IMG/VR virus record: IMGVR_UViG_3300016263_000241
Span: 1 to 56,269 of that record
From: a virus
Lineage: Duplodnaviria; Caudoviricetes
Length of the DNA stretch: 56,269 nt
Reading direction: 5' to 3' (one strand)
Below are positions 12,427-40,171 of this stretch, in pieces (the first letter of the stretch is position 1; the number at the start of each line of letters is the position of its first letter). The translations under genes were made by a program, and so were the position numbers. The notes under the pieces are model-generated. The model had not been told where the DNA came from, searched no databases, and saw only the letters and a list, made by a program, of their open reading frames with translations.

Positions 12427-12430
12427 ATTG

Positions 12431-13721: not shown

Positions 13722-16460
13722 ATGACAACAGTTCCCTCAAATCTGGTTCCGACGCGCATTTCGCAGCTCACCGAGTACGACGGTCTGAGCCAAGATGGGT
13801 ATCTGCCTTATGTCCTCAACGGCGTCACTTATAAGGTCCGCTTCGGCAACATCGCGTCTGTCGGCGCTGTGCCATCGAGCCGCACAATCACTGGCGGCGG
13901 CGGTCTCACTGGTGGCGGCGATCTTACTGCTAACCGCGTCATTTCTATTGCTAATGGCGGGGTGGGCTATTCTCAGCTTGCTGATAGCGGCGTCGTTGCT
14001 GGCACCTACGGCTCGGCTTCTGAGATCCCGGTTTTACAAATTGATGCAAAGGGCCGCGTAGAGATTGCCTCTACCACGCCGATCAGCCTGTCTGGTTACG
14101 TTCCGACTAGCCGCTCTATCACTGCCGGTGATGGTTTGACGGGTGGTGGTACGCTGGCTGCTGACCGCACCATTTCGCTTATTCTGTCTACTGCCACGCC
14201 ACAATCTGGCGGCAACCCGTCTGCTGGTACAAGCACCACGGCTGCGCGTGATGACCACGCTCACCCGGCTGTCGATCTATCGAATGCTGCGGAAACCACA
14301 GGAGTGCTCCCCTTGGACCGTGGCGGCACCGGCAGCAGTTTATCCCCTGTTGCCGGTGCCATCCTATACAGCGATGGCTCGAATGTTAACATGTCCAATC
14401 CGGGCAGTAACAATCAAGTCTTTTTCTCAACGGGCGGTAGCGCACCGACTTGGCGCACCATTACGACTAGCGTTTCAGGTCTGTCTTTTGGCATTTCTGG
14501 TGCTAATTGGTCGCTATCTGGGACGCTTGGTATAGCCAGTGGGGGTACGGGCGCAACAACTGTTGATGCTGCTCGCATTAATCTTCTGCCGAGCTACGGT
14601 GGTAACGGCGGCCGGGTTCTTGGTCTTAACCCAAGCGCAACGGCTGTCGAATGGATTAGCGTTGCTGGGGCTGGCACTGTCACTAGCGTACAAGTTTCTG
14701 GCGGCACGACCGGCCTGACCACAACTGGCGGCCCGATTACGGCTGCTGGTACGATTACTCTGACAGGCACGTTGTTCACGACCAACGGCGGCACAGGCCT
14801 CAGCAGCTACACGGCTGGCGATATGCTGTATTACGCAGCAGGCGACGCCATGACGAAGCTGGCTCTGGGCGCGTCCACGCACATCCTGACATCGAGCGGC
14901 TCTGCCCCTCAGTGGTCTGACCCGACGACGATTACGGTTGGCAATGCGACCAATGCCGTAAACGCAACAAACGCAACGAATGCCACCAACGCGACCAATG
15001 CGACGAACGCTACGACGGCGACCAACATTGCAGGCGGCGCGGCTGGCTCAATCCCGTATCAAACTGCATCTGGCACGACTGCTCTTCTTGCTGCGGGCAC
15101 AGGCGTCCTGATCGGTGGCTCGACACCGTCTTACACTGCCTCGCCCTCGCTGACGCAGGTGACGGTCGCTGCTGACCCGACGCTCGCTCTGCAAGTGGCG
15201 ACCAAGCAGTACGTGGACACGCTGGTGTCGTCTGGCATCACGTACCACCAAGCGGTAAAATATGAGGTGCCGAACAGCACTGGCAACCTCAACGCCACGT
15301 ATAACAACGGCACGGCCGGTGTGGGTGCAACTCTGACCAACGCTGGCACACTGGCTGCATTTGCGCCCGACGGGCCGACTGCACAGGTCGGTGATCGCAT
15401 CCTGATCTACAACCAGACCAATGCCTTCGAGAACGGCGTCTACGAGGTCACAACGGTCGGCAGCGGCTCTGTCGCTTGGGTGCTGACACGCACGACTGAC
15501 GCTGACAGCTACGGCCTGAAAGACCCGAATGCTCTCGGTGAAGGCGACGCCTTCTTCGTCACGTCCGGTAACACGGGCGCTGGTGAAACCTATGTCTGCA
15601 CCACGCAGGGCACGATCACCTTCGGTACGACGGCGATCAACTTCTCGCAGATCTCTTCTGCGCAGATTTACAGCGCTGGCACTGGTCTGACCCTGACTGG
15701 TACCACGTTCAGCCTAACGACCCCGGTTGCGACCACGCTGGGCGGCACGGGCCTGACCACGTTCACTGCAAACGGCGCGGTCTATGCTACGTCAACCAGC
15801 GCGCTGACCACTGGCACCCTGCCGGTTAACGCAGGCGGTACGAGCTTCACCAGCTACACCGACGGCCAAATCCTGATCGGTAAGACGGACGGCTCGCTTG
15901 CTAAGGCAACTGTCACGGCAGGCACAAGCATCTCGGTCACCAACGGCGACGGCAGCATCACGATTGCCAACACGGCTCCCGACCAGACAGTTGTTCTGAC
16001 AGGCGGCACAGGCATCTCGACCAGCGGCACGTACCCGAATTTTACGATCACGAACACCGCGCCAGATCAGGTTGTCGGATTAACTGCTGGTACGAATATC
16101 AGTATCACCGGCACTTATCCAAACTTCACGATTGCCAGCACAGGCGGATCTGGGACGGTCACAAGCGTTTCTGGTACCGGATCGGTCAACGGCATCACGC
16201 TGAGTGGTACGGTAACGTCCAGCGGTTCTATTACGCTGGGTGGCGCTCTAACGGGCGTTAGCCTGACCACACAGGTGACTGGCACGCTGCCAGTTGCCAA
16301 TGGCGGTACGAATAGCACCGCAACACCAAGCGCAGGCGCTGTTGCTTATGGCGACGGCACTGCATACGCATTTACCAGCGCTGGAACTGCTGGGCAGGTT
16401 CTGCTATCTAACGGCACGTCCGCCCCGTCGTTTGGCGGGATTGATGGAGGTACATTCTAA
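13722..16460 (+). CDS. Long tail fibre
   Basis: 912 aa Gly/Thr-rich, GTLPV.NGGT repeats, ATKQYVD, NGVY, ends IDGGTF. Confidence 0.85.
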   Translation: MTTVPSNLVPTRISQLTEYDGLSQDGYLPYVLNGVTYKVRFGNIASVGAVPSSRTITGGGGLTGGGDLTANRVISIANGGVGYSQLADSGVVAGTYGSASEIPVLQIDAKGRVEIASTTPISLSGYVPTSRSITAGDGLTGGGTLAADRTISLILSTATPQSGGNPSAGTSTTAARDDHAHPAVDLSNAAETTGVLPLDRGGTGSSLSPVAGAILYSDGSNVNMSNPGSNNQVFFSTGGSAPTWRTITTSVSGLSFGISGANWSLSGTLGIASGGTGATTVDAARINLLPSYGGNGGRVLGLNPSATAVEWISVAGAGTVTSVQVSGGTTGLTTTGGPITAAGTITLTGTLFTTNGGTGLSSYTAGDMLYYAAGDAMTKLALGASTHILTSSGSAPQWSDPTTITVGNATNAVNATNATNATNATNATNATTATNIAGGAAGSIPYQTASGTTALLAAGTGVLIGGSTPSYTASPSLTQVTVAADPTLALQVATKQYVDTLVSSGITYHQAVKYEVPNSTGNLNATYNNGTAGVGATLTNAGTLAAFAPDGPTAQVGDRILIYNQTNAFENGVYEVTTVGSGSVAWVLTRTTDADSYGLKDPNALGEGDAFFVTSGNTGAGETYVCTTQGTITFGTTAINFSQISSAQIYSAGTGLTLTGTTFSLTTPVATTLGGTGLTTFTANGAVYATSTSALTTGTLPVNAGGTSFTSYTDGQILIGKTDGSLAKATVTAGTSISVTNGDGSITIANTAPDQTVVLTGGTGISTSGTYPNFTITNTAPDQVVGLTAGTNISITGTYPNFTIASTGGSGTVTSVSGTGSVNGITLSGTVTSSGSITLGGALTGVSLTTQVTGTLPVANGGTNSTATPSAGAVAYGDGTAYAFTSAGTAGQVLLSNGTSAPSFGGIDGGTF
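14943..15026 (+). repeat. Asn-Ala-Thr tripeptide repeat in fibre
   Basis: NATNAVNATNATNATNATNATNATTATN with varied codons. Confidence 0.9.
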
Positions 16461-17518
16461 TGGCACAGTCTGGCTACACGCCTATTCAACTTTATCGCAC
16501 ATCGACTGCCAGTGCGATCCCGACTGCTGGCAATTTGGCAGCGGGTGAGCTTGCCATCAACTTGAACGACGAAAAACTGTATTTTAAGAACGCGAGCGGC
16601 ACTGTTACGCTGCTGGCGTCCAGCGCGGGCGCAAGTGGGACGGTTACTAGCGTTGCCTTCAGTACAGGCACAACCGGACTGACAGTTAGCGGATCTCCAA
16701 TTACAAGTTCTGGGACTATCACTCTTGCTGGTACGCTTGCTGTGGCTAACGGTGGCACTGGTGTAACAACCAGCACTGGTTCTGGCTCTGTTGTTCTCTC
16801 TACCTCTCCAGCTCTAACCACGCCAAACTTGGGAACCCCGTCTGCTGCTACGTTGACAAATGCCACAGGCTTGCCCCTAACCACAGGCGTGACTGGCACG
16901 CTTCCGGTCGCAAACGGCGGCACAGGGGTTACGACCTCTACTGGGTCAGGTAATGTCGTTTTGAGCACCAGCCCGACGCTGACAACGCCTGTTTTGGGTG
17001 CTGCATCGGCTACAAGTATCGCATCAGCGCTTGGCGCTGTCGGTACGCCATCTTATACGTTTACTGGCGACCTAGACACCGGGATGTGGTCCCCTGCTGC
17101 AAATACGCTTGCTTTCAGCACTAACGGAGCAGAAGTTGCGAGATTGACTAGCGCGGGCTACTTGGAGGCCGTTTATTCAGACGAGGTAGTGGCTCTAGGT
17201 AATAGCGGCACGGCGACCACGATTAACCTCTCTTCGGGTAACGTCTTTACGGCAACCCTTACTGGAAACTGCACTTTTACGCTGACTGGCGCTAATGCAA
17301 ACTCAAATCGAGGATCTTCCTTGACGCTGATCCTAACAAACGATGGTACCGCTGGGCGTACAGTAGCATGGTCTGGCGGCTCGTTCCGTTTTCCCGGCGG
17401 CGCTGCATCGCTTTCCCGCACCACAACGGCGAATGCTGTTGACATTTGGGTGTTTTTTACGCCAGATCAGGGCACGACATGGTATGGCAACATTTCCATG
17501 AAGAACATGACAGCCTAA
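16460..17518 (+). CDS. Secondary tail fibre with Mtd-N-like N-terminus
   Basis: PTAGNLAAGELAINLNDEKLYFK; PSYTFTGDLDTGMW; C-terminal DQGTTWYG. Confidence 0.8.
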   Translation: MAQSGYTPIQLYRTSTASAIPTAGNLAAGELAINLNDEKLYFKNASGTVTLLASSAGASGTVTSVAFSTGTTGLTVSGSPITSSGTITLAGTLAVANGGTGVTTSTGSGSVVLSTSPALTTPNLGTPSAATLTNATGLPLTTGVTGTLPVANGGTGVTTSTGSGNVVLSTSPTLTTPVLGAASATSIASALGAVGTPSYTFTGDLDTGMWSPAANTLAFSTNGAEVARLTSAGYLEAVYSDEVVALGNSGTATTINLSSGNVFTATLTGNCTFTLTGANANSNRGSSLTLILTNDGTAGRTVAWSGGSFRFPGGAASLSRTTTANAVDIWVFFTPDQGTTWYGNISMKNMTA

Positions 17519-24965: not shown

Positions 24966-25486
24966 TGAGCTTCTGGGATCGCTTTGAGAGTAAGCAAGAG
25001 GGCATCGAGGACACAATCGAGTTCACGATCCGCATGGCTGTCGTCACGCTGGCGATGGTCATCCTTGTTGTGGTGGCGGCAATGGTCGCTGGTATGTTCG
25101 TGTCGAACGACATTGTGGACAGCGAGAAGGTCTTCGAGATCATCGGTCCCGCGTTCAACACAATTGTGGGGGCCTTTGTGGGCTTGCTGGGCGGCTTGAG
25201 CCTGAATGCCAACGCTCGTGACGCAAAGCCTGAAGAGCCTGTTGAGCCAGCCCCTGTTGATGACAGCCCAGTAGCACCTACACCCGTTGCTGCTAACGAA
25301 ACCTTCTTTTCTAACACCAAAGAAGAGCCTGTCGAGTTGACCGAAGCTGTCGATGACGACGACGATGATGACCTCGCCCCGTGGGAGAAATATCGGAACG
25401 ACCTGCGGTATGACTTGAACGGCGACGGCGTGGTTGATGAAAACGATTTTCCGGCATGGCGCGATAACCTGAGAGGTCCACAATGA
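24965..25486 (+). CDS. Two-TM membrane protein with acidic tail and EF-hand/dockerin-like loop (holin candidate)
   Basis: Two TM helices, PAFNTIVGAFVGLLGG, DLNGDGVVDENDF; directly upstream of endolysin. Confidence 0.7.
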   Translation: MSFWDRFESKQEGIEDTIEFTIRMAVVTLAMVILVVVAAMVAGMFVSNDIVDSEKVFEIIGPAFNTIVGAFVGLLGGLSLNANARDAKPEEPVEPAPVDDSPVAPTPVAANETFFSNTKEEPVELTEAVDDDDDDDLAPWEKYRNDLRYDLNGDGVVDENDFPAWRDNLRGPQ

Positions 25487-26094
25487 GCCTTGTAAACCTT
25501 CAGCAGAAGATCGGAGTAACGGCAGATGGTGCGTTTGGTCCGGGCACGCTTAAAGCGGCTGCCGCTTTTTATAAGCTATCACCTAATCGCGCTGCGCATT
25601 TCTTTGCTCAAACTGCGCATGAAAGCGGGAACTTTAAAACGTTCTCCGAGAACCTAAACTACTCTGCCAAGGGCCTTCGCGGCATCTTCGGCAAGTACTT
25701 CCCGACCGACGCCATGGCCCGCGCGTACGAGCGCCAGCCGCAGAAAATAGCCAACCGCGTTTATGCCAATCGCATGGGCAATGGTGACGAAGCGTCAGGC
25801 GAGGGTTGGCTTTTTCGGGGCAGGGGTGCCCTCCAACTCACGGGCAAGGCGAATTTCAAAGCGTTCTCCGATTACATCAATCGCCCCGATGTGATGACCA
25901 ACCCTGATCTGGTGGCTGGCGAACTCTGCTTTGAAAGCGCCCTGTGGTTCTTCGACAAGAACAAGCTGTGGGGCATCTGCGATCAGGGCATTAACGACGC
26001 TGCCATTTTGGCTCTAACAAGGCGCATTAATGGCGGCACCCATGGTCTTGATGACCGCAAAGCAAAGACCAAGAAGTACGCGACTTGGCTCTAA
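25483..26094 (+). CDS. Endolysin, glycoside hydrolase family 19, with N-terminal PG-binding motif
   Basis: ADGAFGPGT; FAQTAHESG..ENLNYS; RGRGALQLTG; TRRINGG..GLDDR. Confidence 0.9.
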   Translation: MSLVNLQQKIGVTADGAFGPGTLKAAAAFYKLSPNRAAHFFAQTAHESGNFKTFSENLNYSAKGLRGIFGKYFPTDAMARAYERQPQKIANRVYANRMGNGDEASGEGWLFRGRGALQLTGKANFKAFSDYINRPDVMTNPDLVAGELCFESALWFFDKNKLWGICDQGINDAAILALTRRINGGTHGLDDRKAKTKKYATWL

Positions 26095-26964: not shown

Positions 26965-28172
26965 TGACCAACACGTACACACAGGTCTTCGGCGGGACGA
27001 CGATTTACCCGTCAGACGTGTCTTATCTGGCGTTGCCACTGACTGCCGACACGCCGCTTGAATGGCCTCTGGAGAGCAGCACGAGCGAATATCCGGCCGC
27101 AAGCATCATTGATGTGACGCCGACTGGCGCATATTCGATCATCATGCCGCCTGCCGATCAGACAGGCACCGGCCAGACCATCCTGTTCAATAATCTTGGT
27201 CCGAACACGATCACGATCAAGAACAACGCGGGCGGCACGCTGGCATCTATCGCGCAGGGCGAGCAATGGCAGCTTTACCTGACGAGCAACACGACGGCGG
27301 CCGGTTCGTGGCGCGTGTTCCGTTATGGCGCAGCAACCGCTCAGGCGCAGGCTTCTGCACTGGCTGGCTACGGGTTGACGGCAACTGGTTCGACCCTGTC
27401 TCAGTCCACCCCTGTCACGCTGTTCAATGCCAACTACACGTCTGGCGCGACTGATCGTGCAAAGGCTTATGTATGGACTGGTGGCCTCGGCACGTTCACG
27501 CTGCCTTCTGCCTCGGCTGTTGGTAACGACTGGTTTGTTTCAGTACGTAACGAGGGTGCTGGTAACTGCGTTATTACGCCTCAGGGCCTTGAGACAGTAA
27601 ACAGTGCGCCGACGCTAACATTGGTGCCGGGCGATAGTATTACGGTCATCACCGATGGCACAAACTGGTTTACGCTGGGTCTCGGCCAAAGCGCTGTCTT
27701 TGCTTTTGACTATACGTCGATCAACATTGCCGGTGAGAGTGGTGATTACGCCCTGACTGGTTCTGAACTGAACCGCATCGCGTATCAGTTTACGGGTGCC
27801 TTGGCTGGTAACGTTGAGATCGTGGTGCCCAAGACGACGCAGCAATACTGGGTCTACAACAACACGACGGGCGGCTCCTATACCCTACGCGTTAAGACCA
27901 ACACTCAAACGCCGGGCGTCCTTGTGGCTCGAGGTTCGCGCGCAATCTTGTATTGCGATGGCTCGGATGTGGTCGATGCTGAAACAGGTGGCATTGCAAC
28001 TCCTATCGCAGTGGCAGATGGCGGCACAGGGGCCACGACAGCAGGCGGAGCGCTGATCAACCTTGGCGGCACATCCGTTGGGATTGGTCTGTTCACCGCA
28101 GCAACGCAAGGCGATGCTTGGACAGCTTTAGGGGTTGCCCCTGCGGGTACTGTCAATGGTGGTGTCTTTTAA
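26964..28172 (+). CDS. Tail structural/spike protein
   Basis: FTLPSASAVGNDW, YCDGSDVV, ends VNGGVF. Confidence 0.7.
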   Translation: MTNTYTQVFGGTTIYPSDVSYLALPLTADTPLEWPLESSTSEYPAASIIDVTPTGAYSIIMPPADQTGTGQTILFNNLGPNTITIKNNAGGTLASIAQGEQWQLYLTSNTTAAGSWRVFRYGAATAQAQASALAGYGLTATGSTLSQSTPVTLFNANYTSGATDRAKAYVWTGGLGTFTLPSASAVGNDWFVSVRNEGAGNCVITPQGLETVNSAPTLTLVPGDSITVITDGTNWFTLGLGQSAVFAFDYTSINIAGESGDYALTGSELNRIAYQFTGALAGNVEIVVPKTTQQYWVYNNTTGGSYTLRVKTNTQTPGVLVARGSRAILYCDGSDVVDAETGGIATPIAVADGGTGATTAGGALINLGGTSVGIGLFTAATQGDAWTALGVAPAGTVNGGVF

Positions 28173-29791
28173 TGGCTGAAAAAATCGTCCAGATTAAGTC
28201 TCTGCCCGGCATCAAGCGGGACGGGACGAAATTTGAGGGCGACAACTACGTTGACGGGCAATGGGTCCGCTTCCAACGTGGCTTGCCCCGTAAGATCGGC
28301 GGTTACCGCTCGATCAGCAAATATCTGCGCGAGATCAGCCGTGCCTTGCACGAATACACGGCAAACAGCCTCACCTATGTTCACAGCGGCTCGGCAAACT
28401 ATGTCGAGCGCTTTTATATTGACGGCAGCTACAACACGTCGGTCATCACGAACCGTACACCATCCACGCTGGTCAACAACGATCAGAATATGTGGCAGTT
28501 TGATGTGGACACGGCTGTGGGCTTGGGTGGCTCTCAAATCGTGGCACAGGTTGCGCCGAACCTTGGGTGCATCTGTAATAACGATGGCGGCCAGCTTTTC
28601 TACGGCCCCCTGCTTGGCACGTCTGCCTTGCAAGAGGTGACCAACCTGCCGACAGGTTACAGCCTGACGGGTGGGGTTGTGGTCCTGCATCCGTATACCA
28701 TGGCATTTGGCGACAATGGCTATGTCATGTGGTCTGTGCCGGGCGATCCGACAGACTTTACAGGTGCCGGATCTGGCGCTGCCAACATCACCGGCCAAAA
28801 GCTCGTGCGCGCCATGCCGCTGCGTGGTGGTCCCGGCAACGCGCCCTCTGGCCTGTTCTGGTCTGCTGACGCCCTTGTGCGCGCCTCCTATGTGGGTGGC
28901 GATGCCATCTTCCAGTTTGACACGATCAGCACGCAAACCTCGATCTTGGGTTCCAACACCGTCATTGAGTATGACGGGATCTTCTACTGGATCGGCACCG
29001 ACCGCTTCCTGATGTTCAATGGCGTTGTTCGTGAAATCGAAAACAACATGAATATCAATCACTTCTTCGATGGCATTAACTTGCAATATCGGCAGAAGGT
29101 GTTTGCGGTAAAGGTGCCGCGCTACGGCGAAATCTGGTGGTGCTATCCTCGTGGGGATGCCACTGAGCCCAGCCATGCGGTGATCTATAACGTCCGCGAG
29201 AACACGTGGTACGATTGCGAGCTGCCGAATGGCGGTCGATCTGCTGGCATCTTCACCAGCGTGTTCCCTAAACCATTGATGACAGGCGTTATTCCGACGA
29301 TCTCTGACGAGCAAATCCGCGTCACCGAAGCGAGCGACACACGCATCACGCAAGATGACAACGTCCGCGTCACGCAGGACAGCGAGATCGAGCAGTACAA
29401 GCTATGGGTGCATGAGGTTGGGACCGATGAGATCGACGGCCTGAACATCCAGCCGGTCTATTCGTTCTTCGAGACGGGCGATCTGTCGCTGCCTGTGACC
29501 AGCCAAGAAAACAAGGCATTACAAGTACTTATGGTCGAGCCTGACTTTGTACAGTCGGGTGATATGACCATGCAGATTGTAGGCCGGGCCAACGCTCGCT
29601 CGCCTGAGGTTGAGACCGAAGAGCATATTATCACTGAGACCGCCAACACGCCGCAAGAGCAGGTTGTGTACTTTAAGACACAGCGCCGTGAGCTGCGCTT
29701 CCGTTTCACCTCGAACACAATCGGCGGTGATTATCAAATGGGTCTGGTTCTGGCGCACGTACAGCCGGGAGACGGGACGGTTATCGGATGA
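28172..29791 (+). CDS. Tail nozzle (tail tubular B / P22 gp10-like beta-propeller)
   Basis: PGIKRDGT..WVRFQRGLPRKIGG; EIWWCYP..VIYNVRENTWYD. Confidence 0.8.
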   Translation: MAEKIVQIKSLPGIKRDGTKFEGDNYVDGQWVRFQRGLPRKIGGYRSISKYLREISRALHEYTANSLTYVHSGSANYVERFYIDGSYNTSVITNRTPSTLVNNDQNMWQFDVDTAVGLGGSQIVAQVAPNLGCICNNDGGQLFYGPLLGTSALQEVTNLPTGYSLTGGVVVLHPYTMAFGDNGYVMWSVPGDPTDFTGAGSGAANITGQKLVRAMPLRGGPGNAPSGLFWSADALVRASYVGGDAIFQFDTISTQTSILGSNTVIEYDGIFYWIGTDRFLMFNGVVREIENNMNINHFFDGINLQYRQKVFAVKVPRYGEIWWCYPRGDATEPSHAVIYNVRENTWYDCELPNGGRSAGIFTSVFPKPLMTGVIPTISDEQIRVTEASDTRITQDDNVRVTQDSEIEQYKLWVHEVGTDEIDGLNIQPVYSFFETGDLSLPVTSQENKALQVLMVEPDFVQSGDMTMQIVGRANARSPEVETEEHIITETANTPQEQVVYFKTQRRELRFRFTSNTIGGDYQMGLVLAHVQPGDGTVIG

Positions 29792-30021
29792 TTGACCCGC
29801 GCGGCATGACTTTACGTGACTGGGCGGATAGTGTTATATTGTCCAACGGAGATGCTTGGTCTTTCGGGAAACTGGAAGATGAGGCTAAATGGCAAGACTG
29901 GGCCGCTGGGTTTGTACGCGCGCAGCCATTTGTGCAGCGCAACCCGCCTAACCCTTATCAATTTAACGACTGGCGGGAATGGGCGATGAGAGCTTACCCG
30001 ATGCTTGAAGGAAACGGTTAA
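29788..30021 (+). CDS. Small Trp-rich tail protein
   Basis: DPRGMTLRDWA..WQDWA..PYQFNDWREWA. Confidence 0.7.
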   Translation: MIDPRGMTLRDWADSVILSNGDAWSFGKLEDEAKWQDWAAGFVRAQPFVQRNPPNPYQFNDWREWAMRAYPMLEGNG

Positions 30022-32540
30022 TGGCAAGTCCCCTTCCGCCTGAAGAACTTTCGGCTCAAGATCAATTTCTGATGACGATGCCTCTTGAGGAGCGGCAGGC
30101 CTATATGGCCGGTCTGGACGCGGCTAAGAACTTTGACCTTGGTGCATATCAGGCACAGTACCAAAAGGCTCAGGCTGCCCAAGATGCCGCGCTGAAGGCT
30201 GCGCAGGCGACAGGTCTTTCTGATCAATACACCCAGCTTTATGGTGGTGCGGACATTGTCCCCGGCATGACGCAGGGCATCTTGTCCAATCTCGGCATCG
30301 AAAACCCCTATCTTCCTGTCTACACGCTGCGTGGAAGCGCTAACAAGGGCGAGATGAGCGCAAACGAGCGTATGTCTTTTGCCCCACTTCCGGGCATGGA
30401 ATATCGTCTGGTGGATAAAAACACCGGACAGGTGACGACTGCTTCCACACCTGAAGAGATCAAAGCACTGGCCGAGGCCGCGAATGCTCTCGGCAAGTCC
30501 GGCGGCGCGATGGCCAACTATGCCATCGAAAGCGGCCAAGGCGGCAATTACTCAACGATGTACGAAGATCGGCCGGACATTTCTAAGTTCGACCGTTTGG
30601 CTGGTATGGCATTGCCTGTTGCGGTTAGCTTGATCCCCGGGCTGCAAGGTGTTGGTGCTGTTTTGGCGGGTACTGGGGCTGGCGCTGCTGGGTCTGCAAT
30701 TGCTGGTGGTGACCCACTCAAGGGCGCTCTTATGGGAGGTCTGACGGCTGCTGGCACGCAATTCCTTGGCCCCGTTGTGCAAAGCGCTCCAAATGCCGCT
30801 GGAAACGTTGTTGCAACAAACCTCGGTCGTGCGGTCGGTGCAGGCGCTGGCGCTACCGCTGGTGGGATTGTCACTGGTCAGCCGATTGAAAAAGCACTGA
30901 TGGGCGGTGCCTTGGCTGGTGGCACAACTTACCTTGGGGGTGAGTTGTTTGGCGGCGAAGATACGCTTGCCAATAAGGTCGCTGCAAACAACCGTCTTGC
31001 GTTGTCCAATTTGGATGCAGGCATTTACAATGCTGGCTTTGATATTAATTCAGCGCTTGCACCTTATGCCGCCGGTCAGGGTGCGTTTGCGCCTCCGGGG
31101 AGCCCCGCTGTTACCCCTTGGACTGGTGGGAAAGTGCCGTCTTATACGACAAGCACTGCTCCGGCATCTGATTATGTCGTTACCGGAACTGGCGCTGGCG
31201 CTCGTCCGTCATTTACAGTTGCTCCAGCCGCAAGCACTACTCCTCGTTCTGACTATGTCGTCACCGGCAAGGAGGTTGCGAAAGAAACAACACCTACTCT
31301 TGCAGTAATTCCGGCTGCAACGACAACTAGCCCTGAAACGGTTGTTACTGGCAAGCGGGTGACCGAGGAAACAAAGCCTACGGTAACCATGCCCCCTGCA
31401 ACGACAACTAGCCCAGAAACTGTCGTGACAGGAAAAAGAGAAACAACAACAACTGAGAAGCCGACGGCCACGCCGGTAGTGGGCGCGACAACTGCTCCCG
31501 GCGAAATCGTTGTTACAGCCAAAAAACCCGCAGAGCCGACTGGCCCGACAATGGTTCTTACGGTTCCCGGCGTAAAACCTTTGCCGCAGGACATTGTGGA
31601 TCTTGCTGAAAAAGACACGGGTGCTGACGATAAAAGCAAATTGGATGCCAAAAAAGTGTTGGCGGCGGCCACTTTGTTGAGCGCTATCGGCGGCAGTGGC
31701 GGCGGCGGTGGTACTGGCACGGGTACTGGCACCGGAAAACTTCAGTCGATCTTTTCCGCTAAGCTTCCGAAGCCGGGTGAAGGTGGTGCATTTCAGGTTG
31801 GTGGGCTCGGTCCTCGCACGGCAGGTCCGGGTGGCACATTCTCTGCACGCCCGACAACCGACTGGTATCGCTACGGCATGGGCCCCGCCATGGACATCCC
31901 CGCTGGCACTGATCTGAGCCGGGCAACGTCGCCTTATGCTGGCTATGGACCCGGCACGCTGGGTGAAGAGACATTCCGCCGGGTAAGTGGCGCATACTCA
32001 CCCTTTGCTGCACGCCATCAGTTGTTGCCCAATATGGTTAGCTCTTTAGGTCGTGACGCAACGTCTGGCGAAATTGAGGCCGCTTTGACTGGCGCAAAGA
32101 CGGCTGAAGAGGCGCGTCGCATCAATCCCGGCACGGCGTATTTCGACATTGATGCTGGCACGGCACAGGCCCTCGGAGATCCGTCTCTGGTCGGCACTGT
32201 CATGTCGATCCAAGACTTGCAGCGCCGCATGGCCGCGCGTCCGATGGCGCATGGTGGTAGCATGGGCTATGCTCGTGGTTCGTCACGTAAAAGCTTTGCG
32301 GTCGAAGGCCCCGGCACTGGCCGCTCGGATGACATTCCGGCCGTCCTGAGCGATGGCGAATATGTGATTGATGCTGAGACTGTCGCTCTGTTGGGTGACG
32401 GCTCAAGCAAAGCTGGCGCGAAGAAGCTCGATGAGATGCGCGTCAATCTTCGTAAACACAAAGGCCGCAACTTGGCGAAAGGCAAGTTTAGTGTTAATGC
32501 TAAACGGCCAGAGAAATATCTGTCAGGAGGACGCACATAA
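30021..32540 (+). CDS. Internal virion/ejection protein with Gly-zipper helices, five TonB-box-like repeats and a C-terminal GPGTGRSDDIPA domain
   Basis: First gene after the nozzle module; GPGTGRSDDIPAVLSDGEYVIDA. Confidence 0.8.
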   Translation: MASPLPPEELSAQDQFLMTMPLEERQAYMAGLDAAKNFDLGAYQAQYQKAQAAQDAALKAAQATGLSDQYTQLYGGADIVPGMTQGILSNLGIENPYLPVYTLRGSANKGEMSANERMSFAPLPGMEYRLVDKNTGQVTTASTPEEIKALAEAANALGKSGGAMANYAIESGQGGNYSTMYEDRPDISKFDRLAGMALPVAVSLIPGLQGVGAVLAGTGAGAAGSAIAGGDPLKGALMGGLTAAGTQFLGPVVQSAPNAAGNVVATNLGRAVGAGAGATAGGIVTGQPIEKALMGGALAGGTTYLGGELFGGEDTLANKVAANNRLALSNLDAGIYNAGFDINSALAPYAAGQGAFAPPGSPAVTPWTGGKVPSYTTSTAPASDYVVTGTGAGARPSFTVAPAASTTPRSDYVVTGKEVAKETTPTLAVIPAATTTSPETVVTGKRVTEETKPTVTMPPATTTSPETVVTGKRETTTTEKPTATPVVGATTAPGEIVVTAKKPAEPTGPTMVLTVPGVKPLPQDIVDLAEKDTGADDKSKLDAKKVLAAATLLSAIGGSGGGGGTGTGTGTGKLQSIFSAKLPKPGEGGAFQVGGLGPRTAGPGGTFSARPTTDWYRYGMGPAMDIPAGTDLSRATSPYAGYGPGTLGEETFRRVSGAYSPFAARHQLLPNMVSSLGRDATSGEIEAALTGAKTAEEARRINPGTAYFDIDAGTAQALGDPSLVGTVMSIQDLQRRMAARPMAHGGSMGYARGSSRKSFAVEGPGTGRSDDIPAVLSDGEYVIDAETVALLGDGSSKAGAKKLDEMRVNLRKHKGRNLAKGKFSVNAKRPEKYLSGGRT
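31170..31526 (+). repeat. Five [DE]xVVT[GA] repeats, 27-29 aa period
   Basis: DYVVTG 31170, DYVVTGK 31251, ETVVTGKR 31335, ETVVTGKR 31416, EIVVTAKK 31503. Confidence 0.9.
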
Positions 32541-33688
32541 TGGGACTTTTTGACTTCCTGACCGAAGGCAAACCGCCCACCGCCGTGCCGGTCTCCTCGA
32601 CCGAGCAAACGGTGCTGCCGGATTGGTATACTAACTATGCCATGGATATTCTGGCCAACCAGCAAGCCATCGCCGCGCGCCCGTTTCAGGCGTATGTCGA
32701 TGCCAGTGGCAAGCCGATCCCGCGCATTGCTGACTTTGCGCCTGATCAGCAGCAAGGATTTCAGGCGGCCCGTGAGGGTGCGTTTGCTTTCCGACCAGAA
32801 ATGGGTCAGGCGTCAAATCTGGCGCAGGCGACAACCGGCCGATCCTCTTTGGGCGCTGCACAGCCTAATTTGCAGCAGGCAGGCCAATACGCCGCATCGA
32901 GCGCTACACCGACCGGCTTGAGCATGGCACAGCCCTTCCTTGGGCAAGCAGGCCAAACATCTGTGTCGAACATCGGCGCATACATGAACCCCTACACTGA
33001 GCAGGTTGTGAACCGCATCGGTGCCTTGGGTGCGCGCACGCTGCAAGAGCAGCTTATTCCGGGCATTCAAAGCCAGATGATCGCCGCTGGCCAGTTTGGC
33101 GGTACGCGTCAGGCTGAATTGATGGGCCGCGCTCTGCGTGACACCATGGAGGGTATTTCCGCTCAGCAGGCACAGGCATTGCAGCAGGGCTATGGTCAGG
33201 CAGCAGGCCTGTCTCAGGCGGATCTTGAGCGTCAGGCGCAGCTTGCATCGACTGCTGGCAGCTTGGGCTTCCAACAGCAGGGTGCATTGGCGCGAGCTGG
33301 TGAGCAAATGGGCGCTCTGGGTCAGCAGATCGGTAGCCTCTACGGCGCTGATACGGCTAATCAGATGGCGCTCGCACGTCAGTTGGCAGATCTCGCTCAG
33401 CAGCGTCAGACGCAAGAGCTTACGGGCGCTGGTGCATTGCAGCAAATCGGCGCTCAGCAACAGGCGATTGCGCAGAAGAACCTCGACTTTGCTCGTGAAG
33501 AGTTCATGCGCGAACAAGAATATCCGCAGCAGCAAGTTACGGGCATGTTGGGTGCGCTTCAAGGCGTTGGCCCGGCTGTTCCGAAGGGCGCAATGAAGGA
33601 AGGCACCGAAGTGCCGGGTACATATCAACCGTCGCTACTCGCTACGCTTGGTCAGGCATTTGCAACTTACAAGGGGTTGACGGGATAA
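32540..33688 (+). CDS. DNA ejection/pilot protein (Gln/Ala/Gly-rich)
   Basis: YMNPYTEQVV, AGQFGGTRQ, EYPQQQ. Confidence 0.75.
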   Translation: MGLFDFLTEGKPPTAVPVSSTEQTVLPDWYTNYAMDILANQQAIAARPFQAYVDASGKPIPRIADFAPDQQQGFQAAREGAFAFRPEMGQASNLAQATTGRSSLGAAQPNLQQAGQYAASSATPTGLSMAQPFLGQAGQTSVSNIGAYMNPYTEQVVNRIGALGARTLQEQLIPGIQSQMIAAGQFGGTRQAELMGRALRDTMEGISAQQAQALQQGYGQAAGLSQADLERQAQLASTAGSLGFQQQGALARAGEQMGALGQQIGSLYGADTANQMALARQLADLAQQRQTQELTGAGALQQIGAQQQAIAQKNLDFAREEFMREQEYPQQQVTGMLGALQGVGPAVPKGAMKEGTEVPGTYQPSLLATLGQAFATYKGLTG

Positions 33689-34869
33689 TGGTTGATCCAA
33701 TCGACGGCACTGAAGGCGATGAAGAAAAAGAAGGCACGTCGCTGTCTGTAAAGCCTAACGCCGATTACACTGCTCCCGGCGGCCTTTCTATTGGGGAGGC
33801 CTTGAGCGCGTATACGCAACGGCAGGGCGCTCTTTCGGAGCAGGGTGCGGCTAATCTTTCATTGTTGACCAAGGCCATGGAAGACTTGCGTGCGCAGCGC
33901 GTAGGTCCGTCTAAGAGCGAAAAGTGGCTGGCGTTGGCTGCTGCTTTGGGTCAGCCGACCAAGACTGGTGCATTTGGCGAAACATTGGGCAACGTCGCTC
34001 AGACGCTTGGCAAGTACAAAGCCGCTGGCCGGGAGGCTGAGCAAGAGAAGCAAAATCTTCTCATGAAATACGGCCTTGAGATCGGCACTGAGCGCTACAA
34101 GCAGCTTCAGGAGGCCGCCAATCAGGCTGGGCAGGTATATCGTACTGTGGCCTCAGCCAGCAAAGCCCCGGCGTTGCGGCCGATTGGCACGACGACCGAA
34201 GGCGGCAAGACCTTAGCCGTGCTTCTTGACCCTACGACAAACACCGTGTCTACGGTGCCGATTGGCGAAGCGCCGCTTGATCTTCAGCCTACAAATCTAA
34301 CATCTCAGGGCCAGCCGGTGTTTAACAGTCCTAAGGGGCCCGTCCTTGCCGATGGCACGCCGGTCAGGCAGTTTGATGAAAAGAAGACGGAGCTTTCTCA
34401 GACTGAATTGCGGGAAATCTTCAAGACTGAGGATGCTCTTAACACGGGCTTGTCCACGATTAATTCGCTCGAGCAGGCGCTTGTGCTTAGCGACAAGGCT
34501 TACGAGGGCTCCTTGTCTGATTTCCGCAAGTTGGCAGGACGTTTCCTTAACAGCAACGACCCGGCGTACATTGCGACTGAGGACTTCGACAATTTGCAAA
34601 TTGCTTCGGCCATCGGCAACCTCAAGAACATCTTCCCCGGCGCGATCTCGAACGATGAGCGCAAGGCATTTAATGATCTACAGGCTGTGTCGAAGTATCC
34701 GCGAGAAGTGCGTTCTCGTATAATTAATCGCGCATTGGCAGCAGCTAAGAGCTTGGTCTCCCGTGAAACTGCTCGCTTGGAGCGTCTCAAGCGTGGTGAT
34801 TACAGCAGACGCAGTGGCACTCCTACTCAACAACCGTCGCCTCCGCGCGTCCTTAATTGGGGGAAATAA
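33688..34869 (+). CDS. Ejection protein (periplasmic tunnel-like)
   Basis: PTKTGAFGETLG; FPGAISNDE. Confidence 0.7.
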   Translation: MVDPIDGTEGDEEKEGTSLSVKPNADYTAPGGLSIGEALSAYTQRQGALSEQGAANLSLLTKAMEDLRAQRVGPSKSEKWLALAAALGQPTKTGAFGETLGNVAQTLGKYKAAGREAEQEKQNLLMKYGLEIGTERYKQLQEAANQAGQVYRTVASASKAPALRPIGTTTEGGKTLAVLLDPTTNTVSTVPIGEAPLDLQPTNLTSQGQPVFNSPKGPVLADGTPVRQFDEKKTELSQTELREIFKTEDALNTGLSTINSLEQALVLSDKAYEGSLSDFRKLAGRFLNSNDPAYIATEDFDNLQIASAIGNLKNIFPGAISNDERKAFNDLQAVSKYPREVRSRIINRALAAAKSLVSRETARLERLKRGDYSRRSGTPTQQPSPPRVLNWGK

Positions 34870-37814
34870 TGGCGCGAGATGTCACCGTAAAACTGAGCAA
34901 TGGCGAAACCCTTATTTACAAGGGCGTCCCTAGAGACGTAACGCCTGATCAAATTGCAGCCAAAGCGAAAGCTGATGGTGGCGCTGACGTTGTTGAGATT
35001 GATGGCGGTGACAGGTCTCAAGGTGAGCCTGCGCCTGAAGCGCCTGCTGCACCCAAAAAGCCCTCTGGGCCGGATACCGCTGGGTTCCAAAAGGAGCTGG
35101 GTGCCTATTATCAGGGCCTCAAGGGCAAGCCGCTCGACACGTCTGTAATCTCGTCTTTGGCTGAGAAATATCAGGTTGGCACCCCGCTAAACCTTGAGGA
35201 CATTGAGGCTTTTTACACAAAGACTGGTCGCCTCAATCCGCAGGTGTTGATGACGGGGCCGAAAGCACCAGCTCCTGCGGCTGAAGATCCAAATATGATT
35301 GTCGCCACAGTCCCCAAGGCTGGCGATATGACGCAGCGCGCCCGCGCCTTTGGTAAGGGCCTGCTTTTTGACTTTGCTGATGAGCTTGAAGCTGCTGGCC
35401 GCATGGTTGCCAGTGGCGAGCTGAGCGCTGACGAATACTATAAGATCAAAGATCAGATTAACGCTGACTATCAGAATTGGGCCAAGGCCAACCCCGGCGA
35501 AGCGCTTGGTTTGGAAGTTGGTGGCGGCATTGCGGGTGCCTTTATCCCCGGCCTTGGCGCTATCGGAACAGGCATGCGCGGCGCTCGTGCTGCTGAAGCC
35601 GCTGGCAGCGTTGCATTGCAGGGCGTCCGCTCCGGCGCGATTACTGGCGGTCTTTCAGGCCTTGGACAGGCCGAAACTATGTCGCCGGGCGATATTATCC
35701 CATCATTGGCCATGGGTGTTGGCACGGGCGGCATTTTTGGCGGAACGTTTGCAAAGGGCGCTGAGCTCGGAGGCCGTGGCTTTGCCGCAGCGCGTGACGC
35801 TATCTTGCGCCGCATGGGCCGCCAAACAGGCGATGCTGTTGATCGCCGCGTGGCAGAGGTTCTGTATGGCAGCACACAATCGCCTGAGCGCGCTATCGGC
35901 CAGACTATCCGGTCAGGCAAATATAATGTCCCGACACCTTTGGGCCTTGCCAATCCCGAACTAGCCGCGCTGACTGAAAGGGTTCTTGCTAAGCCCACCG
36001 TAAGTCGTGAAGGCCGCGAGGCATTGGCGACGCAAATTGCCGAGACGCAGGGTGATGCGAGCAAGCGCGTGCAAGAGCAGGTTCAGGAGGCGCTTCCCGG
36101 CGCGAAGGATTACTTTGATGCCGAGGATGCCATTACGGCAAACCTGCGTAGGATTGGCGACACCGAATACAAAAAAGCTTTTGATGTTGGTGTGGTGAAC
36201 GACAGAGAGCTGATCAACCTTGCCAATAATCCAGAATTGAGCAGCATCTGGGCAAAGGCGCAGCGTCTCGCACGTCTTGAAGGGCGCGAGCTGCCGATCA
36301 AAATGGAGGCCGTCGTCAACGAGGCTGGCGATACAGTTGGCCTGCGTGCGACAGATCAGACCATTCCCGACGTGCAGTCTCTGCACTACCTCAAGCGTGC
36401 GCTGGATGACACGATTGACGCAGGCTTCCGTGGTAGTGCGGGTGTCGGTAAGGCGGAGGCCTCGGTTCTCAAAGAGAGCATCCGCAACCCGCTCGTCGCT
36501 CGCCTTGACAAGATCGTCCCTGAGTACGCCGAAGCCCGCAAGCTTTACGCTGGGGATTTGGAAGTCCGCGACGCGCTACGCCTTGGACGCGACATTATGA
36601 AAGGCAAGCTGCGTTCGCAGCAACTTGCGCGCGAAGTGAACGGCATTCCGGGCAAGAAAAACCCCATGTCTGACGCTGAACGTGAGGCGCTTAGGACGGG
36701 TGCTCGACAGTCCATCTTTGAGCCGCTGGAAGATGCCGCGACCAATCGCAACTTTGCGCAGCGCCTGCGTGGCATTCGCGGTGACAGCGATACCATGGCG
36801 AAGCTCAAGCTGGTTATGGAGCCGCAAGAGTTCCGGTTCTTTGACCGCGCGCTGAAGCTTGAGGATGAGCTCTTCAAGCGTGGCTCCAAGGTTATGGGCG
36901 GATCGCGCACTGTGCCGCTGTCGCAAGGCCTGCAAACGCTGGACGACATGATCAGCGGCGGGAACATTTCTCAGGCGGTCGATTTTGTCTTGGCTCCTAC
37001 TCCGGGTCGCATTGCAACACTCGCGCGCTGGGTCGCAAACCTGAACCCCGGCAAAGAGTTTGGCGACAAGGTCTACACACGACTGAGCCAAGTTCTGTCG
37101 GCTAAAAATCCTGATGAGTTGATCGGCGTCTTGGACATGCTGGCTCGTAGCCGCAGCTATGGTGCTTACATGGCTAAGGTCAAGGATGCTGCAACTGGCA
37201 TTGTGGCTGGCGTCTCAGGCAACGTGGCACCGACGATCACTGAAAATAAAAGCGTGATCAACCCGCCGCGCGTTACGGTGGGAGAGCCGGGTGCGCAAGC
37301 CGCTGGTGAAGACGTTGTCGAAGCCGCTAAGCGCGCAATTGATCTGAACCCGGAAGACAATGCTGGCCTTGTGACCGCCCTTCCAACGGAGGTAGCCGAC
37401 GAAGGCAATCCCCCTTTTAGCGATGGCAAAGCCTCTGTAGCCGAGCGCAATAACAATCCGGGCAACCTGATCGTCTCTGCATGGACCAAGACGCTTCCGG
37501 GCTACATTGGTCCGGGTGAGGGCAAAAATGAGCAGGGCATTCCGTTTGCCAAGTTTGGCAGCATGCAGGCTGGCAAGGACGCTAAGATCCGCCTGATCGT
37601 CAACAAGGTTAACAAGGGTTATCAAACGCCTCGTGCGCTTGTTAAAAGCTGGCTGAGCCCAACAAATGCTCGCGCCAATCCGAAGGTCTTCAATAACTAC
37701 GTTGATTACGTTGCCAGCCGCGTAGGGATTGGTCCTAACGACAAGATCTCGCAAAACGATATTCAGCGGGTAGCGCAGGCGATCTACGAGTTTGAGAGTG
37801 GCGATAGGCCGTAA
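34869..37814 (+). CDS. Large ejection protein with C-terminal lysozyme-like domain
   Basis: Gly-rich TM region; RNNNPGNL..FAKF..YVDYVA..AIYEFES. Confidence 0.75.
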   Translation: MARDVTVKLSNGETLIYKGVPRDVTPDQIAAKAKADGGADVVEIDGGDRSQGEPAPEAPAAPKKPSGPDTAGFQKELGAYYQGLKGKPLDTSVISSLAEKYQVGTPLNLEDIEAFYTKTGRLNPQVLMTGPKAPAPAAEDPNMIVATVPKAGDMTQRARAFGKGLLFDFADELEAAGRMVASGELSADEYYKIKDQINADYQNWAKANPGEALGLEVGGGIAGAFIPGLGAIGTGMRGARAAEAAGSVALQGVRSGAITGGLSGLGQAETMSPGDIIPSLAMGVGTGGIFGGTFAKGAELGGRGFAAARDAILRRMGRQTGDAVDRRVAEVLYGSTQSPERAIGQTIRSGKYNVPTPLGLANPELAALTERVLAKPTVSREGREALATQIAETQGDASKRVQEQVQEALPGAKDYFDAEDAITANLRRIGDTEYKKAFDVGVVNDRELINLANNPELSSIWAKAQRLARLEGRELPIKMEAVVNEAGDTVGLRATDQTIPDVQSLHYLKRALDDTIDAGFRGSAGVGKAEASVLKESIRNPLVARLDKIVPEYAEARKLYAGDLEVRDALRLGRDIMKGKLRSQQLAREVNGIPGKKNPMSDAEREALRTGARQSIFEPLEDAATNRNFAQRLRGIRGDSDTMAKLKLVMEPQEFRFFDRALKLEDELFKRGSKVMGGSRTVPLSQGLQTLDDMISGGNISQAVDFVLAPTPGRIATLARWVANLNPGKEFGDKVYTRLSQVLSAKNPDELIGVLDMLARSRSYGAYMAKVKDAATGIVAGVSGNVAPTITENKSVINPPRVTVGEPGAQAAGEDVVEAAKRAIDLNPEDNAGLVTALPTEVADEGNPPFSDGKASVAERNNNPGNLIVSAWTKTLPGYIGPGEGKNEQGIPFAKFGSMQAGKDAKIRLIVNKVNKGYQTPRALVKSWLSPTNARANPKVFNNYVDYVASRVGIGPNDKISQNDIQRVAQAIYEFESGDRP

Positions 37815-38398: not shown

Positions 38399-40171
38399 GT
38401 GGCAAAGAGCCCCCGACGCCGGATCGTTGACTTTGCCATTCGCGCCCTTCCTGACGCGATTGAGGACGATGCACGACGCATTTTAGGCCTTGAGGTAAAG
38501 CGCACAGCCCGTGCTGCGCCTAAGGCCCTCCCAGCGCCCCCTAAGCCCCTTGCGCTGCCAGCTCCGGGTCCGGGGCTGCCTCCGCTTGCGTCGAAACCTC
38601 GTGGCGGCCAGTGGTGGGCTGACCGGGAGATTGCTGGTGTTAATTCATCTCCAGAAGCAATCGCGCGTAAGCAGGCTGGGGATGTTGGCTACCGTTTTCT
38701 GGAATGGCAACCTGACGATGATTACGGCCTTGTGTCGTTGCAAGTTCCAGACATTCCAAAAGAGCAGTTTAAGGTACAAGACTGGCTGGCGCGTGCATTG
38801 GCTAAATATTACAAAAATGACTTTGGCGCGCCGGATGATCCCTTGCGTGGACTAGCCGAGCGCGGGCTTCATTATGACCCAGACATGACGCCTGAAAAAT
38901 GGAATGCGACGGTCAACTCTTACCTCATGGAAGATCCAATCCAGAGCATCCTTTTCCCACCCAATTTGCAAGGCGGTATGCCCGGAGCTGGCAGCGATTT
39001 GCGCGGAGAGACGTTGGCCGCAATGCCTTGGTTGGCCAAGCAACCAGTTACGGAGAAGGTATACGGTATCAGTGGCGGCCTCGACCTTGAGCACTTTGCT
39101 GATGAGTTTTACAACGCACTACACCCCGAGGTGTCGGGCTTGCCGATGAGCCTTGCGGTCCGCCCCGAAAGCCTTGATCGCATGACATTTGCGCAGGCGG
39201 CGGAGCACGTCGGCAAGATCAACCAATATCGTGCCAAGGAAATGCAGAGGGCTGCTCTGGCGGCGCAAGATAGCCCGGCGGTATGGCCTTACAAAACCTA
39301 TTCTGAAAACAACCCGCGCGGCTTACGCTGGGTTGAGTTGAAAGCACCTGAGAACGTCGAGAACCTACTCGACGACGCTGATCGTGAGCGCCTCAGCCTT
39401 GCAGCCCAAGAGGGTCGCCTTAATCCGCAAGACAAAGAAACTATCCTGAGAGTACGCGCACAGCGCGCCCTTGAGGATGCCCTTAAATACGAAGGCGACA
39501 CAATGGGCCACTGCGTTGGTGGTTATTGCCCCGACGTTATGTCAGGCCGCAGCCGCATCTTCTCCCTGCGTGATGCCAAGGGTGAGCCGCATGTGACGAT
39601 TGAGACGCAGCGGGGTTTATCGCCTATACAAGACTTACCCTACGATCAAATTCCGGAAGACTTGCAATCCGCATATCAAAACTACACCGTTAGTCCGATA
39701 CGCGAGACATCACATATTACGACAGGGTTCCCCGGATGGCTTCGTAAAAATGACCCGGATTTGTTTGAGCGTTATTCAGAATTGCTAACGCCTTCCGAAA
39801 ACATCATCCAGATCAAGGGCAAACAAAACCGCGCCCCCAAGGACGACTATCTTCCCTTCGTGCAGGACTTCGTGAAGAGCCAGCAATTCGGCAACGTCGG
39901 CGATCTGGCCAACACTGGCCTCGTTCGCTTGCCTGACGGACGGTATCTGACGCATGATCAGATGGACGAAATCATCCGCAATGAAAGCCTCGACGATAGG
40001 TATCAGTCCTATGATTTCAATGCACGAGGCTTCCCACGTGATCCGGCATATATGGACCCAGAAGATTGGGCTCAATTCCAGCGTCACTTCGAGGGCTACG
40101 CAATTGGTGGCCGTGTAGACGCAGACCGTTGTTTCTGTCATAATCCCCTCAGTGTGAAAAAGGGTCGGTAG
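38399..40171 (+). CDS. Putative injected effector with PcfJ-like domain
   Basis: LKYEGDTMGHCVGGY..IFSLRD..PHVTIE..IIQIKGKQN. Confidence 0.75.
   Translation: MAKSPRRRIVDFAIRALPDAIEDDARRILGLEVKRTARAAPKALPAPPKPLALPAPGPGLPPLASKPRGGQWWADREIAGVNSSPEAIARKQAGDVGYRFLEWQPDDDYGLVSLQVPDIPKEQFKVQDWLARALAKYYKNDFGAPDDPLRGLAERGLHYDPDMTPEKWNATVNSYLMEDPIQSILFPPNLQGGMPGAGSDLRGETLAAMPWLAKQPVTEKVYGISGGLDLEHFADEFYNALHPEVSGLPMSLAVRPESLDRMTFAQAAEHVGKINQYRAKEMQRAALAAQDSPAVWPYKTYSENNPRGLRWVELKAPENVENLLDDADRERLSLAAQEGRLNPQDKETILRVRAQRALEDALKYEGDTMGHCVGGYCPDVMSGRSRIFSLRDAKGEPHVTIETQRGLSPIQDLPYDQIPEDLQSAYQNYTVSPIRETSHITTGFPGWLRKNDPDLFERYSELLTPSENIIQIKGKQNRAPKDDYLPFVQDFVKSQQFGNVGDLANTGLVRLPDGRYLTHDQMDEIIRNESLDDRYQSYDFNARGFPRDPAYMDPEDWAQFQRHFEGYAIGGRVDADRCFCHNPLSVKKGR

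Follow-up and report, generated by a model that had tools for sequence, protein, structure and literature searches.

The window analysed here is the whole 56,269-bp stretch of DNA from the Caudoviricetes record IMGVR_UViG_3300016263_000241 of IMG/VR, a complete viral contig (CheckV 100%) with a G+C content of about 0.56 and no tRNA genes along its length. On the plus strand, at positions 30021-32540, it carries the gene of P0001, an 839-amino-acid (aa) probable ejection (internal virion) protein, the central part of which holds five short motifs of the form [DE]xVVT[GA] that an earlier, sequence-only reading had likened to TonB boxes. We found that this array is real and selected. One possible explanation, which we place just short of probable, is that it is an array of TonB-box mimics in a linker exposed to the periplasm, where TonB would capture it in the manner known from group B colicins.

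The P0001 gene and its motif array

Translation of 30021-32540 places the five motifs exactly where the sequence-only reading had put them: DYVVTGTG at aa 384 (31170-31193), DYVVTGKE at aa 411 (31251-31274), ETVVTGKR at aa 439 (31335-31358) and again at aa 466 (31416-31439), and EIVVTAKK at aa 495 (31503-31526), all on the plus strand and, as claimed, 27-29 aa apart (measured spacings of 27, 28, 27 and 29 aa). The surrounding segment, aa 370-520, is richest in Thr (38 of 151 residues), Val (21), Pro (20) and Ala (17), and not one of 20,000 composition-preserving shuffles of it reached five VVT[GA] (maximum 3, mean 0.13). Across the 36,920 residues of window frames that reach 100 aa, on either strand, there is no [DE]xVVT[GA] beyond these five. 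The five-motif array is thus far beyond chance.

The five repeat units have a mean column identity of 62%. Tandem Repeats Finder detects nothing repeated at the DNA level between 31000 and 31700, and synonymous differences set the VVTG codons of the units apart, which together indicate that the units are not the product of a recent DNA duplication. In eight close relatives, identity to P0001 is 53% in motif columns compared to 39% in linker columns, with variants such as DYTVTG, ITVTGT, PEIVATA and PETTVTGKR at the motif positions; the motif has therefore been kept while codons and linkers diverged, as the sequence-only reading had proposed. The fifth motif is the best-conserved copy in the family: its V498 is at least 90% conserved among 96 aligned relatives, and a de novo motif search chose it as the site of P0001. 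Antisense to the repeat region runs a 159-aa open frame (31253-31732, minus strand), most likely a side effect of the Thr/Val/Pro-rich make-up of the coding strand rather than a gene.

To place the array within the protein we used an AlphaFold2 monomer model built with the 96 relatives, with the predicted local distance difference test (pLDDT) score given as means of 10-residue blocks. The model starts with a folded N-terminal alpha/beta domain at aa 10-190 (30048-30590, plus strand; block pLDDT 41-92 over aa 11-190 and mostly 72-92, confidence being low in loops at aa 61-120). It continues with Gly/Ala-rich hydrophobic helices at aa 187-309 (30579-30947, plus strand; helices 187-203, 211-227, 232-254, 267-284 and 289-309), presumed to be the membrane-inserting part. 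A Kyte-Doolittle hydrophobic segment covers aa 187-229, many columns of the helix region are invariant among 9 aligned sequences, and a few of its Gly positions are at least 90% conserved among the 96. The array then lies in a Thr/Pro/Val-rich linker predicted to be disordered (aa 305-550; 30933-31670, plus strand; block pLDDT about 28-44, almost no secondary structure), and every motif falls within this predicted disorder, with a block mean pLDDT of about 30 and no secondary structure at the motifs. Two further claims of the sequence-only reading, that the motifs are joined by Pro/Thr-rich disordered linkers and that they follow Gly-zipper helices, agree with this model, in which the Gly-rich helices end about 75 residues before the first motif.

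The regular spacing, 27-29 aa in P0001 and most commonly 25-30 aa in its family, would also suit an array of structural strands, in which the motifs of many subunits pair in an oligomeric ejectosome to form a sheet or tube across the periplasm, and ejection proteins do form oligomeric conduits. Such strands would be just 5-6 residues long and parted by Pro-rich linkers of at least 20 aa, the copy number varies from 0 to 7 across relatives, and the monomer model shows no structure there, although a fold existing only in the oligomer lies outside the reach of a monomer model; we regard this explanation as very unlikely. For the reading of the motifs as TonB boxes, by comparison, the disorder of the region counts in favour, because TonB boxes act from unstructured segments (PMC11658791, PMC7142613).

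Beyond the linker, the model has a short hydrophobic helix at aa 544-556 (31650-31688, plus strand; modelled at 544-553) followed by a Gly run, then a conserved Gly/Pro/aromatic region at aa 574-660 (31740-32000, plus strand) with many columns at least 90% conserved and low pLDDT, and a small folded domain at about aa 675-740. The protein ends in a hyper-conserved domain of about 95 residues (aa 745-839; 32253-32537, plus strand), in which nearly all columns are at least 90% conserved among the 96 sequences, AlphaFold2 models just one helix confidently (796-819), and identity is 94-97% between proteins that are otherwise only about 40% identical. This C-terminal domain, present too at the end of proteins that bear a tape measure annotation in other phages, is the sole part of P0001 that matches the PHROG 'tape measure' families and the Caulobacter phage RW cluster; its conservation suggests that its partner is tightly constrained or that the module is often exchanged. 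Neither Pfam nor NCBIfam has a family for P0001, Foldseek returned 0 matches to its model in the PDB at E ≤ 1e-3, a sequence search of the PDB gave nothing relevant, and a fold search of BFVD retrieved only uncharacterised phage proteins.

Gene neighbourhood

The P0001 gene lies in a structural module beside a nozzle gene and together with other ejection-type genes. Two genes 5' of it, a nozzle-like tail protein (28118-29791, plus strand) matches the virion structural protein family phrog_3287 (E value 5.5e-32) and, among PDB sequences, the solved podophage 'nozzle gp16' (8zkk_O, matched by 28169-29791, E value 7e-10) and 9nwi_Y (E value 2.4e-15). Between the two, overlapping both, is a 77-aa open reading frame (ORF; 29788-30021, plus strand) that gave no match in family searches and has a 78-aa counterpart in the matching position of Caulobacter phage RW (RW_GP067c). 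P0001 is therefore encoded by the second gene after the nozzle, not by the first as the sequence-only reading had it.

Downstream follow a 382-aa protein of a 'DNA ejection protein' family (32540-33688, plus strand; phrog_4287, E value 3.2e-5), a 393-aa protein of the same module (33688-34869, plus strand; phrog_24990, E value 5.7e-12), syntenic with RW_GP064c, and a 985-aa protein with an endolysin-like C terminus (34857-37814, plus strand). The last of these matches phrog_5880 over a large N-terminal part (E value 1.5e-39) and the 'endolysin' family phrog_873 at aa 851-983 (E value 2.1e-8), gives no match in the PDB or NCBIfam, and is probably the wall-degrading ejection protein. Caulobacter phage RW has similar-sized genes in an order matching the run from the nozzle gene to the 985-aa gene. 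Given this nozzle and ejection gene context and the gene order shared with RW, P0001 is best read as a probable podophage ejection protein.

We also considered P0001 as a tail tape measure protein and rejected this, since a podophage nozzle homologue is present and about 245 of its residues are predicted to be disordered. Its matches to PHROG 'tape measure' families are weak and confined to aa 692-794 (E values of 3e-5 to 2e-3), the GB2A homologue owes its 'tape measure' label to similarity-based annotation, and no tail-tube or tape-measure chaperone gene was found among the subset of window ORFs scanned.

Elsewhere in the window are a large terminase (1123-2565), a capsid protein (8046-8963), a weakly matching SU10-adaptor-like protein (12428-13417), tail fibres (13722-17518) and an endolysin (25483-26094). 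The terminase has a sub-threshold Intein_splicing match (E value 3.3e-4, 20.9 bits against a cut-off of 35.8) that is probably noise. Directly 3' of the ejection module, at 38399-40171, a 590-aa protein carries a PcfJ-like domain (PF14284, E value 3.2e-8).

The motif across the family and its likeness to receptor TonB boxes

Among 7,999 candidates scored, 910 are relatives of P0001 at E ≤ 1e-3, and at the same threshold a larger library contains 5,855 clusters (50% identity) related to all or some of P0001; in many family members only the C-terminal domain is shared. A relaxed pattern finds at least one copy of the motif in 103 of the 120 listed relatives, with counts from 0 to 7, so that the homologue survey suggested in the sequence-only reading returns a motif that is both conserved and copy-variable. 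The copies sit mid-protein, at a median relative position of 0.50. In a set of 258 relatives no shorter than 500 aa, 45 lack the pattern; 14 of these were inspected by eye and all 14 carry variants, for example DLIKVTGSRV, EEILVNARET and EDIVVDATKR, and none of the 258 has a Bacteroidota-style box variant ending in G-[YF]-G. These counts support a conserved, copy-variable short linear motif in the disordered linker of a probable ejection protein.

For comparison with receptors we collected 70 TonB-dependent receptors by their Plug domain from five Pseudomonadota genomes, a sample that may not represent the host of the phage, and derived a motif de novo from the 45 aa before that domain. The result, L-D-x-[VI]-x-V-T-[GA]-[ST]-R, falls in register with the motif found de novo in the central regions of 118 non-redundant relatives of P0001, x-D-[ED]-I-V-V-T-[GA]-x-[RK]: the two align at offset 0 over all 11 columns with a mean column correlation of 0.58, which was equalled by 1 of 2,000 column permutations.

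The likeness holds in both search directions. For 16 of 30 receptor ORFs (about 630-700 aa), a phage matrix built from 194 unique 12-mers places its top match within a 41-aa window ahead of the plug, compared to 6% expected. In the other direction, the receptor matrix gives 1.63 matches of at least 8 bits per 1,000 residues of the 120 relatives; other phage frames, with 191,677 residues in all, give 0.135, a rate 12-fold lower, and at 12 bits or more the difference is 50-fold. At least one match of 8 bits or more is present in 63, and at least two in 32, of the 117 relatives that reach 500 aa among the best 150 non-redundant representatives (at most 50% identical), with boxes such as LDDIVVTGVRN, DDELVVTGNRI and LSDITVTGTRL. 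A tiny hidden Markov model (HMM) of the receptor box gives the first eight ranks among 804 frames to eight full-length relatives (E values of 0.011-0.83). As a control, receptor models match 7 of 9 full-length-type relatives on viral contigs but only 1 of 58 proteins in which the shared part is the C-terminal domain alone. Taken as sequence comparison, these results support a resemblance between the family motif and receptor TonB boxes.

The composition of the family motif bears on two other explanations. One is that the motifs are processing sites, at which a prohead protease or a host periplasmic protease cuts beside the acidic residue that precedes the hydrophobic run (SPE/T, PGE/I and ASD/Y in P0001, the slash marking the putative cut). 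An acidic residue does precede the hydrophobic core in 122 of the 194 unique family instances, and some phages cleave internal proteins after Glu in short motifs, but the strongest conservation lies after the putative cut, in V-T-[GA]-x-[RK], which a cleavage motif leaves unexplained, and no prohead protease was found among the subset of window proteins scanned; cleavage is most improbable as the role of the array.

The other is that the motif does act by beta-strand pairing but not with TonB, its partner being perhaps another periplasmic host protein, a neighbouring ejection protein or the portal and core stack, and its likeness to a TonB box being convergence on a pattern of acidic residue, hydrophobic strand, Gly and basic residue. 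The motif is short and its pairing with TonB is proposed from sequence, P0001's own copies are indistinguishable from background with receptor models (see below), and ejection proteins must pack in order in the capsid and assemble together after ejection, as in T7 and P22, all of which would fit such a partner. The register over 11 columns, which takes in the Thr, the Gly/Ala and, two positions beyond, the Arg/Lys, speaks against it, as does the preference of the phage matrix, in those 16 of 30 receptors, for the TonB box over all other strands of a 22-stranded barrel and plug. To our knowledge, TonB-family domains are also the only described readers of this motif. We consider a partner other than TonB unlikely.

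A possible TonB-box mimic and its known analogues

Several observations weigh against reading the array of P0001 as TonB-box mimics. Its own five copies score at background level, with 2.2-4.3 bits under a 30-receptor matrix and -1.2 to 5.5 bits under the 70-receptor matrix (best for the fourth motif, at 5.5 bits, and 0.8 bits for the third); shuffled P0001 has a mean of 1.45 matches at the fifth-best observed score; and the receptor-box HMM, run with HMMER on P0001, gives -7.5 bits after a composition correction of 11.5. None of the copies has the leading Asp, and at the position of the receptors' Val or Ile four of them carry Thr or Tyr, in a comparison with a receptor sample of 70 proteins from 5 genomes that are not the host's. 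A short, beta-prone motif between an acidic residue and Gly could have converged for another partner. Many relatives with the C-terminal domain work without the array, which is hence not essential to this kind of protein, and the relatives on three contigs in metagenome bins (L002, L003 and L004) likewise share that domain without a TonB-box-like array.

Nor does known TonB dependence of phages supply a precedent, because the tail proteins of phage T1 lack the motif: the tape measure, tail-tip and J proteins (L193, 19547-28561) reach at best 2.5-5.7 bits with the 70-receptor matrix, and the sole match of at least 8 bits in the T1 genome is in orf31 (8.0 bits). Infection by T1 and phi80 needs TonB and energised cells, as passages of PMC11658791 state, but that dependence, in contrast to the one proposed for P0001, is attributed to the receptor FhuA.

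The TonB-box claim of the sequence-only reading therefore stands in one part and falters in another: the resemblance is strong and reproducible at the level of the family, in both search directions, whereas for P0001 itself it is weak, its own copies lying at background with receptor models, and the claim is partly supported by sequence. Given these background scores, we do not claim that the copies of P0001 are statistically TonB-box-like by themselves; with its own copies degenerate, the case for P0001 rests on homology to the clearer boxes of its relatives and on a 6-mer of the fifth motif, EIVVTA, that is identical to one sampled receptor box (L124). The ETVV of the third and fourth motifs resembles ETVIV, given in PMC7142613 as the classical TonB-box consensus pentapeptide.

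A complex prediction pairing a TonB C-terminal domain with aa 484-520 of P0001 gave ipSAE values of 0.05 and 0.02 against a mark of 0.32; run without controls and with a stand-in TonB, it counts neither for nor against the pairing. The TonB side was aa 105-199 of an exbBD-linked TonB from genome G202 with a 13-row alignment, and the peptide side used the 9-sequence P0001 alignment. On contig C1 of the same genome, at about 2,268,881-2,273,290, four adjacent ORFs (about 344-355 aa) encode two TonB_C domains each, eight in 4.4 kilobases, an unusual tandem cluster of double-domain TonB-like proteins.

A tblastn search of cultured phages with P0001 and P0126 as queries returned C-terminal matches only, in phages of the Caulobacter RW cluster and a few others. 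The RW cluster, the only cultured relatives, has in common with P0001 the C-terminal domain, the synteny and one box of 9.6 bits, VDEIVVTPSQP, which the RW orthologue carries next to two degenerate copies. A scan of a genome collection matched only the three contigs mentioned above, all in metagenome bins, labelled Opitutae, Methylomonas and Flavipsychrobacter. The one in the Methylomonas-labelled bin (L003) is 54,632 bp long, about one phage genome, and all three may be phage contigs that were sorted into bins, not prophages, and are thus unfit for host assignment. The 'sphingomonad/caulobacter' host named in the sequence-only reading was a guess. Since the motif is common among freshwater metagenome phages, it could mark a type of host envelope.

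If the array does mimic TonB boxes, a colicin-like sequence of events can be proposed. P0001 would be carried in the virion of a podophage and, once ejected, would insert its Gly-rich helices into a host membrane, leaving the linker of about 245 disordered, Thr/Pro-rich residues in the periplasm. There its array of short beta-strand motifs, copying the TonB box of TonB-dependent receptors, would let the C-terminal domain of host TonB capture one or more of them by beta-strand pairing. Capture would couple the ejected P0001 to the ExbB-ExbD-TonB machine, driven by the proton-motive force, and this machine could pull the unfolded chain from the tail channel or tether a nascent trans-envelope conduit towards the inner membrane. 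We infer the virion location, the periplasmic exposure, the binding to TonB and any pulling or ratcheting of P0001, and likewise whether the outcome would be pulling, ratcheting, tethering or a mere blocking of TonB. A fuller version, in which P0001 belongs to a large, mostly uncultured family of ejection proteins with genuine TonB-box ladders and TonB-ExbBD, powered by the proton-motive force, draws the unfolded protein and the conduit with it from the tail and across the periplasm box by box, we judge rather unlikely; if true, it would amount to a colicin-style import step within the genome delivery of tailed phages.

The same sequence evidence would fit interference with TonB, in which P0001, once ejected, ties up TonB close to where the phage enters and either shuts receptors to superinfecting phages and bacteriocins or disturbs nutrient uptake, and nothing in our data separates this from import. 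Against it stand the few copies of ejection proteins per virion, as in T7 and P22, and the usual expression of protective functions from the infecting genome rather than their carriage in the particle, and we hold interference to be highly unlikely.

Were capture by TonB the true role of the array, it would name a host motor for the exit of podophage ejection proteins from the capsid in unfolded form, their passage through the outer membrane and the building of a conduit, extend the parasitism of TonB from bacteriocins to tailed phages, and point to a new class of phage-resistance locus (tonB/exbBD), regardless of the identity of the receptor. The motif is short and mutable, so that the idea can be tested directly, including in Caulobacter phage RW. 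Our search of open-access text, with subscription journals and supplements outside its scope, found no account of a TonB box borne by an ejection or tail protein of a phage, in line with the remark in the sequence-only reading that none was known for ejectosomes.

Among known systems, the ejection proteins gp14-gp16 of T7 and gp7, gp20 and gp16 of P22 resemble P0001 in being encoded in a run of large genes after tail or nozzle genes and in having hydrophobic helices and a neighbour with an endolysin-like domain, but searches by sequence and by fold detect nothing similar to P0001 among solved proteins, and in the open-access literature we found no report of TonB-box-like motifs in ejection proteins of the T7 or P22 type. 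In filamentous phages, g3p binds TolA, a periplasm-spanning co-receptor linked to the proton-motive force. That contact differs from the one proposed here in using Tol and not Ton, a folded domain and not a linear motif, and in belonging to a different type of virus. With the receptor TonB box, the phage motif has in common its family consensus, in register with the pre-plug motif of the 70 receptors, and its position in an unstructured segment, whereas it stands in a phage protein with no plug behind it and in arrays of up to 7 instead of a single box.

We also considered P0001 as a translocation domain of the group B colicin type. It is not a member, since the array is central (aa 384-502 of 839) and searches of Pfam, NCBIfam and PHROGs found no bacteriocin domain, but it may work like one. 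Import of group B colicins, pyocins, klebicin C and colicins 5 and 10 makes use of a TonB box within the bacteriocin itself, placed in a disordered segment that reaches the periplasm and is pulled there by TonB. These bacteriocins differ from P0001, with which they share no homology, in having a single, N-terminal box together with receptor-binding and toxin domains; the cargo, in the role proposed for P0001, would be a virion protein that forms a channel and, in the end, DNA. As described in passages of Braun's 2024 review (PMC11658791), the way into the cell for klebicin C and colicins 5 and 10 is TolC or Tsx, conduits without a TonB box, and on an unstructured end these bacteriocins offer a box of their own to TonB, which drives their import. 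They are a precedent for a TonB box carried by the cargo through a conduit other than a TonB-dependent transporter. The TonB-dependent bacteriocins are thus the closest analogues of P0001, and a phage tail channel could serve as the conduit without a box.

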